A stretch of 64,000 bases of DNA from Planctomicrobium piriforme (GTDB lineage Bacteria; Planctomycetota; Planctomycetia; Planctomycetales; Planctomycetaceae). The stretch lies in assembly GCA_040393865.1 (NCBI GenBank), contig JBEBTF010000001.1:7729-71728 (forward strand). The letters are read 5' to 3'. Shown in pieces: positions 1 to 4,828 of this stretch. The translations under genes were made by a program, and so were the position numbers. Position 1 is the stretch's first letter. Each line of letters starts with the position of its first letter. The notes under the pieces are model-generated. The model saw nothing but the letters and a program-made list of their open reading frames with translations, was not told the DNA's origin and made no database searches.

Positions 1-1
1 G

Positions 2-1684
2 AGTCTTCAGCTTTTCGAGAGCAGCCTGACTGAATCCCTGAATTCGCCGATGTGCCTGAGCAGCAAATCGTGAGAGGAAATGCTGGGCGATGGACGGAAT
101 ATCATCGGCGTGCTGGCGCAATGGAGGGACAGTGATTTCGATGACCTGTAGTCGGAAGAACAGGTCGCGACGGAATCGCTTCTCCCGGACAGCCTCTTCC
201 AAATCCCGATTGGTTGCAGTCACAACTCGCACGTCAACGGAGATTGGGTCACCTCCGCCGACACGTTCGAATGCCTGCCCTTCCAGCACTCGCAAAAACT
301 TTGCCTGAATCTCGGGACTCATTTCCCCGATTTCGTCGAGGAAGAGTGTGCCTCCGTTGGCCTGTTCAAACTTCCCTGCGCGACGTGAAGCCGCTCCGGT
401 GAAGGCACCTTTTTCATGCCCGAACAGCTCGCTCTCCAGCAGACTTTCTGTCAATGCGGCACAGTTCACGCAGATGAATGGCCCATCTTTTCGTTTGCTG
501 TTGAAGTGAACAGCACGCGCGACAAGCTCCTTGCCAACGCCACTTTCCCCGCGAATCAGCACCAGCGCATCGGTCGGGGAAACGCGGGCGATCGAGCGTC
601 GCAATTTCTCAAGGCTCGGGCTTTGGCCAACAAGTTCGGTTTCAACTCCGAGTTGTCCTTGCAGGTCATTGACCTGACGTAATGCACGATCTAACCCAAC
701 TTCAAGGTTGGTTCGTTCACGCAAATTGTACAACTGATCGCCGAGTTGGTCCGCAACAGCAAGCGTGAACTCAAGGTCGTCCTGAGTCATGTTCTTGCTG
801 TCTTGACGAAGCGAGTACAAATGCACAACTCCAATCACCGTTCCGTTGTGGCGGATTGGTGAACACATTGCACTGTGTGCCTGGAGTTCATGCAGGCTAT
901 TTTGATTCGACAGGGAAGCGTGACTGGAAATGTCGTACGCCAGAACTGCGTTTCGTTCGACAAGCACATTCTTTGTGAGGAACGATGAGAAGTCGGTTGT
1001 CGGGCGATTTCCGATGGTTGCAATCGGAATCAATTCGTCCTGAGTCCAGTGTTCACGGTCACCCGGCGCAAGAAGGATGCCTCCCAATTCTGCATTGGAA
1101 TGAGTAACCAGGGCTTCGAGAACCGTCTGGCAGAGTTCCTGTTCCGAGGCGCATGCTGACATCAGTCTGGCAATGCGAAACAGTGCAGTCGCGTGATCCG
1201 GTTTCCCTTTGCTGTGTTGCAGGCCGGAAGATTTGTCGTATTGAGTACCAGACTTGCGCTCGATGATCTCATAAGTCACTTCCGCGCGGTCGTCCGCAAT
1301 GACAGTGGCGTTATGAATCGAAGGAGCTGAAGCCGCAGGCGGAGCTGGAGTGGGCGAACTGGAAAGCAACAGAGTGCATGCTCCGATGCCAATTATGCTT
1401 CCGATGGACAGGGGACGATCCTCTGTGATCGGGACTCCATCCAATGTCACGCCATTGCGACTGTTCAAATCACGGAGCTGCCAGACTCCGTTGCGCAGAT
1501 AGAGTTCGCAGTGCTCACGACTGCACTTTGCGTCAGGGATCACAACACGGTTGGAACTGGAACGTCCGATCGTGACTGACCCGTGATTGGGAAGTTCAAT
1601 AACTTCAAGTAGAGCTGCTCCACGCTGGATAATGAGGAATGCAGGACGTGCTACTTGAGATGTGGTGTCTTGGTTCGATTCCAT
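2..1684 (-). CDS. sigma54-dependent transcriptional activator (bEBP) with N-terminal FHA and central GAF domains; 3' end runs off the window
   Basis: Missing from the ORF track because there is no stop in the window. Manual translation from the ATG at 1684 gives MESNQD...[23 protein letters not shown]...DLNSRNGV (FHA signature), Walker [16 protein letters not shown] and [15 protein letters not shown]. The FHA start and the GAFTGA motif were checked to be in the same frame. GAF is inferred from the intervening segment. Confidence 0.92.
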
Positions 1685-1915
1685 TTTGGCGAAGTCAATT
1701 CAGTTACAGCTGCAGCAGGAAATTCGAAGTGTGCCTTGGGAATCGAGTCAGGTGGCCGCTTGTGACCATCCTGATTGAATCGCAATCTGTTTGCATTCGT
1801 CAGGGTTTAGGGCAAATTGAAATTCACAGTCTGACGCCGAAAACACAGCAGATTGAGTGCCACTGCGTCTAAAAATGGCCTTTTGGTTAAGAATTTGATC
1901 CACAATTAAACGGGC

Positions 1916-1973
1916 TGTATTGAAATGAATCGCCTGTGTGATTGCTGTGTATTGAAATGCTTGTGTCGAAATG
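1916..1973 (+). promoter_or_regulatory. three direct repeats TGTRTYGAAATG, putative upstream activator sites of a sigma54 promoter
   Basis: TGTATTGAAATG at 1916-1927 and 1948-1959, TGTGTCGAAATG at 1962-1973. They lie ~135-195 bp upstream of the predicted start of the promoter at 2083. Confidence 0.5.
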
Positions 1974-2082
1974 GGACTGATTGCCGGGGTTTTTCGTGAT
2001 TCAGAGGTTTGACACTTTGGGCGGCCGCAATTTTTCCTGTGCGATCGGTGTCTATTTAAAATGTTGACTTTGTCTGTTGATT

Positions 2083-2098
2083 TGGCCTCAGATTTGCA
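2083..2098 (+). promoter_or_regulatory. sigma54 (-24/-12) promoter
   Basis: TGGCCTCAGATTTGCA has exact GG-N10-GC spacing and TTGCA at -12. An IHF-like site (1 mismatch to WATCAANNNNTTR, minus strand) lies at 2057-2069. Confidence 0.7.
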
Positions 2099-2108
2099 GA
2101 TAATATCT

Positions 2109-2240
2109 AACATTGTTCCCTTCGATCGTCGTGTCATTGAATTTCGGGAAATTCTTTTATTTTCACTGCCGGCTGAATTTGTAACCCCCGAGAGACACGT
2201 CGTGCCCGTCAGGTGCTTCACTTGACGGGCTGTTTTTTTG
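2109..2240 (+). ncRNA. candidate sigma54-dependent small RNA (~130 nt)
   Basis: Bounded by the -24/-12 promoter and an intrinsic terminator. Has a 5' hairpin, an AU-rich linker and a C-rich stretch; no SD-led ORF. Confidence 0.5.
2204..2240 (+). terminator. intrinsic terminator
   Basis: Stem GCCCGTCAG / TTGACGGGC followed by TGTTTTTTT. Confidence 0.75.
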
Positions 2241-2685
2241 TGAACTTTTGATGCACCTGATCGTAGGGGGGGCAAACCGACTTACTCCAAAATTTTGCTG
2301 ATCAGGAGTCTGACGTAGTGAGCCGATGAGGTCGGACGCGTGGTAGGAGAATGTCCGCCAAATCCCGCTGCGGCTCAGTTGTTGTTTCGTCGTTCGATTC
2401 GTATGAGTACGGATCAACAGGGTGGTAGATTCACGTGCGATCTGTTTCGGTGGTTCTCTTGCCGATTTGGTTTCGCCGCATTTCTTTTGACGCGGCGTGT
2501 TGAACCGCAACAGTGTGGAGAAGTGGGGATGTGCAGTTTTAATGCACCTTGTTCCCTTTCGTTCTTTACCAGCAGGCACGGTGTTGGCGTTTCATGACAA
2601 ATTCAAAGAAAACAGAATAAACATTCGTTGATGTGGATGGAAATAAATTTCGAAGGAAATGCCAGAGTCTGTCCGGTTCAGTTGC

Positions 2686-2714
2686 TTGACCCCACTCCGA
2701 ATCAAAGTTACATT
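2686..2714 (+). promoter_or_regulatory. sigma70-type promoter of the tRNA pair
   Basis: TTGACC-N17-TACATT, ~90 nt upstream of tRNA-Val. Confidence 0.6.
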
Positions 2715-2806
2715 TCTGCACGCAATCTACCCTCTGTTGAACACGGTGGGTATGGTGAGGTTTACGATCAATTTGATTTAGTTTACTCGCCGAAGTTGCG
2801 ACAAAT

Positions 2807-2880
2807 GCGCCCGTAGCTCAGTTGGTTAGAGTGCATGCTTGACATGCATGAGGTCACTGGTTCGAGTCCAGTCGGGCGCA
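2807..2880 (+). tRNA. tRNA-Val (anticodon GAC); CCA not encoded
   Basis: Acceptor GCGCCCG/CGGGCGC, D arm AGCTCAGTTGGTTAGAG, anticodon arm CATGC-TTGACAT-GCATG, T loop TTCGAGT. Confidence 0.96.
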
Positions 2881-2893
2881 CTTGCATAAACTT

Positions 2894-2938
2894 GGCCGGT
2901 GCGGAGTGTCTTACGAGATTCCGCACCGGTCTTTTCTT
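2894..2938 (+). terminator. terminator-like hairpin between the two tRNAs
   Basis: GGCCGGTGCGGAG / TTCCGCACCGGTC followed by TTTTCTT. Confidence 0.6.
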
Positions 2939-3011
2939 GCCACCGTAGCTCAGTTGGCAGAGCGACGCTTTCGTAAAGCGTAGGTCGTCAGTTCGAATCT
3001 GATCGGTGGCT
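2939..3011 (+). tRNA. tRNA-Thr (anticodon CGT); CCA not encoded
   Basis: Acceptor GCCACCG/CGGTGGC, anticodon arm ACGCT-TTCGTAA-AGCGT, T loop TTCGAAT. Confidence 0.96.
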
Positions 3012-3397
3012 CTCCTTCTGTTTGCTCTTGCTAGGGCATTTCAATAATCGTGCATTGTCTCTGGCGCGCGAGATCACTTTTCTCTTGAGAAGGCCGCTGC
3101 GCAGCCACTTGATACGAACCGATACGGTTTGGCTGTTTGCACATGTTGCTTGTGTGTGCATCTCTGCTACAGATTCTGCCGTGCTGTCTGCTTCTGGTTG
3201 GTCACATTCTTCGTGACACATGCTCAATCTCAAACACGCTCGAACAGGGTGTGACTCCCGCTGTATGATTTTGCATCGCGATCATTTTGCAGTCATCACT
3301 CTGGAACGTGAGACAGACTGATCTGTTTTCAGTTCTTCTCCTGCTGCCCGATTTCGCGGTGTTTCAAATGTGTCCTCAGCCATGAACAGATTGACAA

Positions 3398-4828
3398 ATG
3401 GACAACGAAAACGCTTCAGGTGATTCACTTGTCAACGACCTGCTTTCCATCTGGAAGGCAGGGGTCTCGGCTGTCGATTCGCGTCGCCTGGTTTCCAGCA
3501 ATATTGCAATTATGGGAAACACATTCCGAGTTGGAGATTCGGAGTGGGTGAAGAAAGAGGGAGCACGAATCTGCATCGTCGGGGCGGGGAAGGCCGGCGC
3601 CGGAATGGCGGCTGGTGTTGAAGATATGCTTCCACCTGATTGGTTGGAACTGACAACTGGTTGGGTGAACGTTCCTGATGATTGTGTGATTCCGTTGAAG
3701 ACGATTCATCTTCATGGGGCGCGTCCGGCAGGTGTCAATGAACCCACCGAACGAGGAGTTTTCGGGACTCGTGAAATCCTTCAACGAGTCGCAAATTTAA
3801 ATTCTGACGATCTCTGTCTGGTTTTGATTTCCGGAGGAGGAAGCGCGCTTTTGCCTGCTCCGTGCCTTGGCATCAGTCTCGAAGACAAACTGTCTGTCAC
3901 CAGATCGTTGATGCGTGGGGGAGCGACGATCTCGGAATTGAACTGTGTGCGTCGTGCGATTTCAGAAGTGAAAGGCGGAGGCTTACTGCGAGCGTGTCGC
4001 GCTGGAACGATGATTGTTCTGCTGATCTCCGATGTTATTGGTGATCCACTCGAAACCATTGCCTCAGGGCCAACTGTGAATATGACACCATCGGCAGCGG
4101 AGGCGTTGGTGGTCCTCGAACAATTTCAGGCGCGTTCAGGTGTTTCTGTTCCGCGATCCGTTCTGGAGTATCTGAAACAGCGACGAGATGCTGATTTGCT
4201 GCGAACGCCTCGGCAACATGAGAGGGTCTGTCGCTGTTCGCACCATGTCGTCGGAAATAATCGCACGGCAGTGGAGGCGGCTGCGCAAAGGGCGACAGAT
4301 TTGGGATATGACGTGGTCGACATCAAATGGGACCTTCCCGGCGATGCTGCCCAGACCGGAAGAGATTTCGCCGAACAACTGGTTGCGTTGGGAACTCAGG
4401 AGTCAGCTCCCTCTCTCGATTCGCCATCAGCGGGGCATGAGGTCGCCGCACAAAAGCTGTGTGTCATCGCCGGGGGAGAAACAACAGTCACTCTTGCAAA
4501 GACGCCACTTCCTCAGAAGGGAGGGCGAAATCAGGAATTGATTCTCTCGGCTCTGGTTGAACTCGCGTCGCGGAAAGACTTGCCGAAATTAGCGATGGTT
4601 TCTGGTGGAACAGATGGCGAAGACGGCCCGACAGATGCTGCCGGCGCCTGGCTGGATCGCTCACTGATTGAGACGACGCAGAATGGGGAGATTGATCCTG
4701 TGCCTTATTTGCAGATCAACAACTCCTATCCCTTCTTTGAATCGGAAGGAACGCTGTTGAAAACAGGGCCAACACACACCAATGTGATGGATCTTCGGGT
4801 GGGACTCATTGAGAAAAGCAGCTCGTAA
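3398..4828 (+). CDS. glycerate 2-kinase / hydroxypyruvate reductase (DUF4147 + MOFRL family)
   Basis: Motifs VGAGKAG, LISGGGSAL, SDVIGD..IASGPT, GGETTV, GGRNQE, GTDGEDGP, TGPTHTNVMD. Confidence 0.92.
   Translation: MDNENASGDSLVNDLLSIWKAGVSAVDSRRLVSSNIAIMGNTFRVGDSEWVKKEGARICIVGAGKAGAGMAAGVEDMLPPDWLELTTGWVNVPDDCVIPLKTIHLHGARPAGVNEPTERGVFGTREILQRVANLNSDDLCLVLISGGGSALLPAPCLGISLEDKLSVTRSLMRGGATISELNCVRRAISEVKGGGLLRACRAGTMIVLLISDVIGDPLETIASGPTVNMTPSAAEALVVLEQFQARSGVSVPRSVLEYLKQRRDADLLRTPRQHERVCRCSHHVVGNNRTAVEAAAQRATDLGYDVVDIKWDLPGDAAQTGRDFAEQLVALGTQESAPSLDSPSAGHEVAAQKLCVIAGGETTVTLAKTPLPQKGGRNQELILSALVELASRKDLPKLAMVSGGTDGEDGPTDAAGAWLDRSLIETTQNGEIDPVPYLQINNSYPFFESEGTLLKTGPTHTNVMDLRVGLIEKSSS

Follow-up and report, generated by a model that had tools for sequence, protein, structure and literature searches.

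Several bacterial small RNAs (sRNAs) are read from sigma-54 promoters beside the gene of a bacterial enhancer-binding protein (bEBP), and it is with these systems that we compare a locus in a 64,000-nt stretch of the genome of Planctomicrobium piriforme, a planctomycete from wastewater (hereafter the window; G000:C1:7729-71728 of a 4.18-Mb assembly that is 80% complete), where a predicted ~130-nt RNA at 2109-2240 (+) lies divergently from the gene of a sigma-54 activator with FHA and GAF domains. In Vibrio, qrr1 adjoins luxO and is divergent from it. The Qrr sRNAs (Qrr1-5) are activated by LuxO with sigma-54 and feed back on luxO (PMC3130561). As proposed for the present locus, the bEBP has as its main direct output a short, self-terminated sRNA read from a sigma-54 promoter; the genes of the sRNA and the activator are neighbours that share a control region, and expression of the activator is subject to feedback. 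However, LuxO is a two-component response regulator, whereas the present activator combines FHA and GAF domains and has no receiver; luxO is repressed by LuxO itself, whereas a sigma-54 box at the present locus predicts self-activation; and the Qrr sRNAs depend on Hfq and have luxO mRNA as a pairing partner, whereas here Hfq was not found and pairing with the activator leader was no better than with non-cognate ones. The Qrr sRNAs and the present RNA show no sequence or Rfam relation. In myxobacteria, the gene of the sRNA Pxr adjoins the sigma-54 response-regulator gene nla19 and has a predicted sigma-54 promoter (PMC5568312). Like the present RNA, Pxr is ~100-130 nt long, contains stem-loops, follows a predicted sigma-54 promoter, keeps its place beside a bEBP gene across genera and is lineage-restricted; its targets were long unknown. 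The arrangement differs: nla19 is followed by pxr in the same orientation, whereas the present RNA gene is divergent from that of the activator. Nla19 is moreover a response regulator, and the two RNAs belong to different families and phyla.

CrcZ with CbrB and GlmY with GlrR are further sigma-54 sRNAs beside two-component bEBPs, in Proteobacteria, and both RNAs act as protein decoys. NrsZ with NtrC is another proteobacterial case of a sigma-54 sRNA beside a two-component bEBP (PMC4253122). In these three pairs, as is proposed here, a sigma-54 promoter and a neighbouring cognate bEBP drive a non-coding RNA; their input is a His-Asp phosphorelay, unlike that of the present activator, and the RNAs are unrelated in sequence. 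The FHA domain as N-terminal input on a sigma-54 activator is shared with the FHA-domain bEBPs of Myxococcus xanthus, reportedly the subject of work by Jelsbak, Givskov and Kaiser in 2005, which are tied to developmental protein-coding operons, unlike the sRNA output predicted here. To our knowledge, every known sigma-54-driven sRNA is under a two-component response regulator, and we know of no FHA-domain bEBP that has an sRNA as its output. An earlier note on this stretch, made from the sequence alone, knew of no description of such a circuit. The design itself is on record in Qrr/LuxO and Pxr/Nla19; for this RNA, no earlier description came up in our literature searches. The RNA family is new and the regulatory design was already known; the present module is an FHA/GAF-gated variant, a bEBP beside a sigma-54 sRNA being not new in itself.

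The explanation that we consider probable is that 2109-2240 (+) encodes a structured, trans-acting sRNA of ~130 nt, transcribed with sigma-54 by way of the divergent activator and acting by Hfq-independent pairing. In the proposed mechanism, sigma-54 RNA polymerase would read the RNA from the -24/-12 box TGGCCTCAGATTTGCA at 2083-2098 (+), with +1 predicted near 2109, and would stop at the RNA's own intrinsic terminator. Open-complex formation would be driven by the divergently encoded FHA-GAF-AAA+-HTH_8 protein, bound to an intergenic enhancer that is most likely formed by three repeats of TGTRTYGAAATG at 1916-1973, and from the same enhancer the activator would switch on its own gene through an opposed box at 1862..1847, the outcome being positive autoregulation coupled to RNA output. 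Since the activator has no receiver, keeps the phosphothreonine (pThr) residues of its FHA domain and has a GAF domain next to it, the input signal is most likely a Thr-phosphorylated partner, as in Ser/Thr-kinase signalling, a small ligand, or both. The RNA would most likely pair with mRNAs through an exposed 5' tail (~UUAUUCCCGUUGAU) ahead of a stem domain of two helices, P1 and P2, without Hfq. A broader proposal, which we put forward tentatively and regard as somewhat doubtful, is that the RNA may be the sole direct output of this FHA- and GAF-gated activator and may turn Ser/Thr-kinase signalling into Hfq-independent post-transcriptional control, in a module that much of the Planctomycetaceae would have inherited from a common ancestor and that would have arisen in parallel in Acidobacteria. 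If true, the FHA/GAF-gated activator would extend the sigma-54 sRNA design to Ser/Thr-phosphorylation signalling.

The RNA of 2109-2240 (+), with a sigma-54 box upstream and its own terminator, folds with a minimum free energy of -41.5 kcal/mol (z = -3.3). It starts with a free, unpaired 5' tail of ~18 nt (2109-2126) that carries a conserved UUCCC at 2116-2120. There follow the long-range helix P1 (2127-2135 with 2194-2202), which covaries strongly, as does the terminator; helix P2 (2142-2148 with 2187-2193), set off from P1 by an internal loop; a U-rich apical region (2149-2186) with GCCGGCU at 2168-2174; and an intrinsic terminator with a 12-bp stem (2204-2230) and the U-run TGTTTTTTTG after it, which ends at ~2240 and had been placed there by the earlier note. 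Both stem and U-run are kept in the homologues, which when folded singly gave the same layout of free 5' tail, P1, P2 and terminator, the tail consensus being conserved and unpaired. In a 40-sequence alignment fitted to the covariance model, 94.1% of cells were paired vs 69.2% after shuffling, and none of 500 shuffles reached the observed values; 21 of the 22 pairs changed on both sides, and only 28-48% of cells paired once the partners had been slid by 1-3 columns. In P1, 98% of cells were paired and each of the six core pairs showed double changes, variants being CGCTGTATC/GATACAGCG in the genome G008 and CGCCATATT/AATATGGCG in G001, and the compensatory P1 changes were already visible in a plain MAFFT alignment. 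In G001 the strands of P2 are swapped (CCGAGA/TCTCGG vs UUUCGGG/CCCGAGA). A short terminated non-coding RNA tied to the divergent bEBP, as the earlier note had envisaged, is thus upheld by the comparative evidence with a different fold: the 5' hairpin drawn there (UUCCC..UUCGAU / AUUGAA..GGGAA) was no better than shuffles (66.5% vs 66.4% paired, a value reached by 261 of 500), so that the UUCCC motif belongs to the conserved unpaired tail, ahead of the long-range P1 and P2. The GGG strand of P2 may pair with the CCC of the tail in place of the 3' CCC strand. A covariance scan of 1600-2800 on both strands against Rfam 15 (including Qrr, GlmY/Z, CrcZ and 6S), up to E = 10, matched no family and returned only two tRNAs and chance matches on them, in line with the Rfam check that had been suggested.

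A protein search of 40 relatives identified orthologues of the activator in 10 genomes, at 52-94% identity; in other relatives it gave only FHA-GAF bEBPs at 41-48% identity. The orthologous loci of the 10 genomes all show two opposed sigma-54 boxes, with a conserved segment and an intrinsic terminator behind the outward box, and their sequences were used to build a covariance model, R1. This model gave exactly one match per genome in 32 of the 151 genomes of the same family, and its refined version, R2, found one copy per genome in 50 of the 151, representing 22 of 51 genera, with matches in all 7 other genomes searched of the window's own genus. Outside the family, R2 yielded only 28-31-bit matches resembling bare terminators. 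The conserved unit is the promoter with the RNA and its terminator, and the RNA is well supported as a gene, with a proposed physiology. With riboregulation in Planctomycetes almost unexplored, and the genomes examined lacking an Hfq match, the locus offers an entry point: the RNA family has a covariance model that works, its promoter and cognate regulator are predicted, and cultured relatives with complete genomes carry the same locus.

The box TGGCCTCAGATTTGCA, which the earlier note had correctly given as an exact -24/-12 element, has its GG and GC exactly 10 nt apart, within flanks that resemble TGGCAC-N5-TTGCW, as is characteristic of sigma-54 promoters. When a box was counted at 8 or more of 11 consensus matches, GG-N10-GC preceded the start of the RNA model in ~34 of 40 homologues, by 18-35 nt in general and by 48-49 nt in two; the five spacer bases vary freely among the homologues and the GG-N10-GC spacing is kept. 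Such boxes have a genome-wide background density of ~1 per 9.4 kb of strand, and the window holds 3 matches to the -24/-12 pattern vs 1.5 expected. Since a lone box is hence not above chance, the weight of the promoter comes from its conservation. The gene rpoN is present in G000 (Sigma54_DBD at G000:C163, 209 bits) and in five of five complete relatives. G001 (L007 / L150) has its single sigma-54 box ~117 nt farther upstream, which would give a primary transcript of ~250 nt that is perhaps processed.

The activator is encoded on the minus strand; its 5' part (1683 nt, the N-terminal 561 residues) occupies 2..1684 and the open reading frame (ORF) runs off the left edge of the window, the full gene being G000:C1:7250-9412 with a product of 720 aa. 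Pfam searches confirmed the divergent FHA-GAF-AAA+ sigma-54 activator that had been read from the sequence, with an FHA domain at residues 37-101 (PF00498, 5e-18), a GAF domain at 179-316 and the Sigma54_activat AAA+ domain at 351-517 (PF00158, 4e-71), and added an AAA lid (AAA_lid_14) and a Fis-type HTH_8 domain. The translation retains an intact GAFTGA loop, Walker A (GESGVGKE) and Walker B (LFLDEIGE), and the protein hence possesses the full set of NtrC-type bEBP features: Sigma54_activat, GAFTGA, Walker A/B and a C-terminal helix-turn-helix (HTH). The pThr-contact residues GR / SREH / NG of the FHA domain are present (TIGRSS, CSREHC, SRNGV), and a receiver domain is absent. Little is known of the signals and regulons of FHA-domain sigma-54 activators, for which the locus would provide a simple single-promoter read-out.

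In most genera the activator gene is divergently adjacent to the RNA. Two genera, g63 and g65, have no activator gene within 5 kb of the RNA (RNA loci L048, L149, L052 and L060; activators L178-L182) and carry a full-length orthologue at 48-58% identity elsewhere, e.g. 0.63 Mb away in G145. A quick maximum-likelihood tree of 35 full-length FHA-GAF bEBPs, in which related genomes share labels, placed 16 RNA-positive genomes and G002 on one side of a branch with support of 100 in the Shimodaira-Hasegawa-like approximate likelihood-ratio test (SH-aLRT), and the best FHA-GAF bEBPs of 18 RNA-negative genomes on the opposite side; both unlinked genera fall on the RNA-positive side. G002 was labelled RNA-positive though its contig breaks inside the gene, which leaves 34 genomes of known RNA status; as it lies inside its genus clade, the split is unaffected. 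The tree indicates that the RNA and the activator orthogroup are co-inherited. No motif common to the upstream regions of the RNA and of the activator was found in the unlinked genomes. The retention of both genes in g63 and g65 despite the loss of linkage constitutes a natural experiment for the enhancer.

The second sigma-54 -24/-12 box, TGGCACTCAATCTGCT at 1862..1847 (-), had been missed previously. It faces the activator gene, with a predicted transcription start site (TSS) near 1836 and a 5' untranslated region of ~150 nt, and was found in all 10 close orthologous loci and in most linked loci of other genera; loci of the FHA-GAF bEBPs at 41-48% identity have neither sigma-54 box. Its retention in all close orthologous loci predicts positive autoregulation. 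The -24 boxes of the two divergent promoters are 221 bp apart, and between the promoters lie the three direct repeats of TGTRTYGAAATG (+) at 1916, 1948 and 1962, reading TGTATTGAAATG at the first two positions and TGTGTCGAAATG at the third, a candidate enhancer or upstream activating sequence (UAS). The repeats were found as previously noted, and the window holds no other match of the motif (3 observed vs 0.07 expected). The cluster is the sole one of this motif in the whole assembly, which fits a dedicated enhancer. The repeats are located 110-167 bp upstream of the -24 box of the RNA and ~80-137 bp upstream of the predicted activator TSS, and both distances suit a looping bEBP. In G007, the closest relative, their positions are unchanged. 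Of the conservation anticipated beside orthologous activators, that of the promoter, the RNA and the terminator was observed in many genera, and that of the repeats extends to G007. The IHF-like site proposed between the repeats and the box, AGTCAACATTTTA at 2057..2069 (-), differs by one mismatch from WATCAANNNNTTR and carries no weight, one-mismatch matches being at chance level (45 observed vs 45.7 expected). In several genera a TTGAC(T/A) hexamer (2064-2069 in the window) lies 0-14 nt upstream of the -24 box, and GTTGACTT recurs, as does GTTGAC near that box in some genera; the hexamer is neither a conserved sigma-70 promoter nor a convincing IHF site.

Hfq (PF17209) had no match in G000, which is 80% complete, or in five genomes that are 99% complete (G003, G004, G006, G007 and G013); these Hfq-negative genomes represent the window's genus and a neighbouring one, and contain rpoN and many bEBP paralogues. 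Any base pairing by the RNA would hence be Hfq-independent, and sRNA action in these genomes would need no chaperone or a different one. A Qrr-like feedback on the activator leader was also considered and found no support, the mean cognate duplex energy being -17.8 kcal/mol vs -18.3 kcal/mol for non-cognate combinations at 28 loci.

A number of observations weigh against the reading of the RNA as a sigma-54-driven, base-pairing sRNA under the adjacent activator. As for the structure, the support for P2 is weaker (82% paired), and the 40-sequence alignment, being fitted with cmalign, leans towards the structure of its model. With regard to targets, a duplex scan of the tail against positions -70 to +30 of ~3,200 crude ORFs gave no outlier, the best energies of -30 kcal/mol lying within the tail of the distribution once the self-antisense match was set aside. 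The complement of a 16-mer seed matched 10 sites in G000 with up to 2 mismatches vs 3.1 +/- 2.6 in shuffled controls, a marginal enrichment in that 7 of 300 shuffles reached 10, and the sites form no coherent gene class; in 5 other genomes the seed complement AACGGGAATRAT gave 8 extra sites vs 2 in the control, most of them inside unrelated coding regions, and the sites are not orthologous between genera. As for the regulator, no Ser/Thr kinase gene adjoins the locus; at least 8 bEBP-like paralogues were matched in G000, which could in principle serve the promoter of the RNA; and in g63 and g65 the RNA keeps its sigma-54 box and the relocated activator gene has none, so that autoregulation is not universal. 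No enhancer motif common across genera could be defined (GAAATG and TGCAGC were weakly enriched at inconsistent positions); hence the step that takes the repeats as the UAS rests on two close genomes, from which we infer their role in binding. Finally, four RNA-labelled libraries (sludge and seawater metatranscriptomes, available as contigs only and compared with 1-3100) had no cover over 2081-2288, a gap that, in contig data, carries no information on an RNA of 130 nt.

Among the other explanations, the one that survives best, though we regard it as unlikely, is that the RNA is real and sigma-54-driven but binds or sequesters a protein or RNA polymerase, with the apical GCCGGCU...GAUUUCAUU on the P1-P2 scaffold as the binding surface. 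The pairing scans gave no target, Hfq was not found in G000 and 5 complete relatives, and the apical region is partly conserved, including the palindromic GCCGGC, all of which would accord with such a role; indeed, the lack of a convincing target together with the negative activator-leader test leaves room for it. However, among unpaired stretches it is the 5' tail that is conserved best, as would be the case for a seed-bearing sRNA; repeated GGA-type motifs and other known signatures of protein sponges are lacking, and the RNA is present as a single copy per genome with one short stem domain.

Appreciably less probable is that another sigma-54 activator drives the RNA and that the adjacency of the FHA-GAF bEBP gene is historical. 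The separation of RNA and activator in two genera, the 8 or more bEBP-like matches in G000 and the lack of an enhancer motif shared across genera would be expected under this explanation. Yet the presence of the RNA matches one activator clade throughout the 34 genomes, the unlinked cases included; in most genera the paired sigma-54 boxes flank a single enhancer region, and the repeat cluster is unique in the genome.

A further explanation, which we consider very improbable, is that the transcript comes from an overlapping sigma-70-like promoter, TTGATT-16-GATAAT (2077-2104), the sigma-54 match being incidental or secondary. This pair, which overlaps the box, matches 9 of 12 consensus positions, and several genera have TTGAC-like hexamers a short way upstream of the -24 box, but a sigma-70-type pair is kept in only 5 of 36 homologues, whereas the sigma-54 GG and TGC are found in nearly all.

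It is slightly less credible still that the RNA acts in cis on downstream genes, as a leader, attenuator or riboswitch, an idea suggested by the order of a structured domain and then a terminator and by g63, where a same-strand gene begins 100-250 nt downstream. The genes that follow the RNA differ between genera and lie on either strand, being conserved only within genera; in the window's own genus, and only there, the RNA is followed by a tRNA-Val/Thr pair, which is ~570 nt off. No conserved antiterminator alternative was seen, and a strong terminator with a U-run is present in all homologues. The RNA has a predicted promoter and a Rho-independent terminator of its own and is not tied to one downstream gene, as is expected of a trans-acting sRNA. 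That the locus encodes a small protein, through the SD-less 23-codon ORF from TTG 2113 to TAA 2184 which the earlier note had raised as its alternative, can be dismissed as hardly credible at all, as the ORF is present in the window and in its 94%-identical relative G007 but has no Shine-Dalgarno sequence, is missing or in other frames in the other homologues with no conserved peptide, and is crossed by indels that are not multiples of three and by substitutions that are compensatory for the helices rather than codon-like.

In metagenomes of several studies, taken from wastewater, sludge, bioreactors, soil and insects, 80-91% of the sampled words of the locus were present. In the RNA-labelled libraries, which may include carried-over DNA and usually lose small RNAs, sparse 151-nt contigs matched perfectly inside the activator gene, and matches from other organisms fell on the tRNAs. 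One 157-nt contig (1667-1823) spans the activator start codon and stops 13 nt short of the predicted minus-strand TSS, a weak hint. Another perfectly matching contig covers 2604-2754, between the RNA gene and tRNA-Val.

Downstream of the RNA terminator, ~570 nt (2241-2806) contain no credible gene before tRNA-Val(GAC) at 2807-2881, which is followed by tRNA-Thr(CGU) at 2939-3012. A sigma-70-like site, TTGACC-17-TACATT at 2686-2714, is probably the tRNA promoter. After the tRNAs, 3398-4828 (+) encodes a 476-aa protein with DUF4147 and MOFRL domains (glycerate-kinase-type) that looks ordinary. To the left of the window, 310 nt downstream of the activator gene, G000:C1:6487-6939 (-) is a 150-aa helical ORF with no Pfam match; it occurs at the same place in G007 (92%), G001 (52%) and G013 (49%) and is absent from the other loci searched (~30).

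At the acidobacterial FHA-GAF bEBP loci examined, R2 detected no homologue of the RNA (best E 0.24, not adjacent), so that any RNA there would belong to a separate family. In one Acidobacteriota metagenome-assembled genome (L065:1900-2100, minus strand), a TGGCAC-N5-TTGAA box lies ~400 nt upstream of an FHA-GAF bEBP gene and is followed by CUUCCCGUAA and then by a long-range GCGGAACGGU/ACCGUUCCGC pairing. The layout there, a tail with a closing helix, is superficially similar to that of the planctomycete RNA, but no homology is detected by the covariance model.

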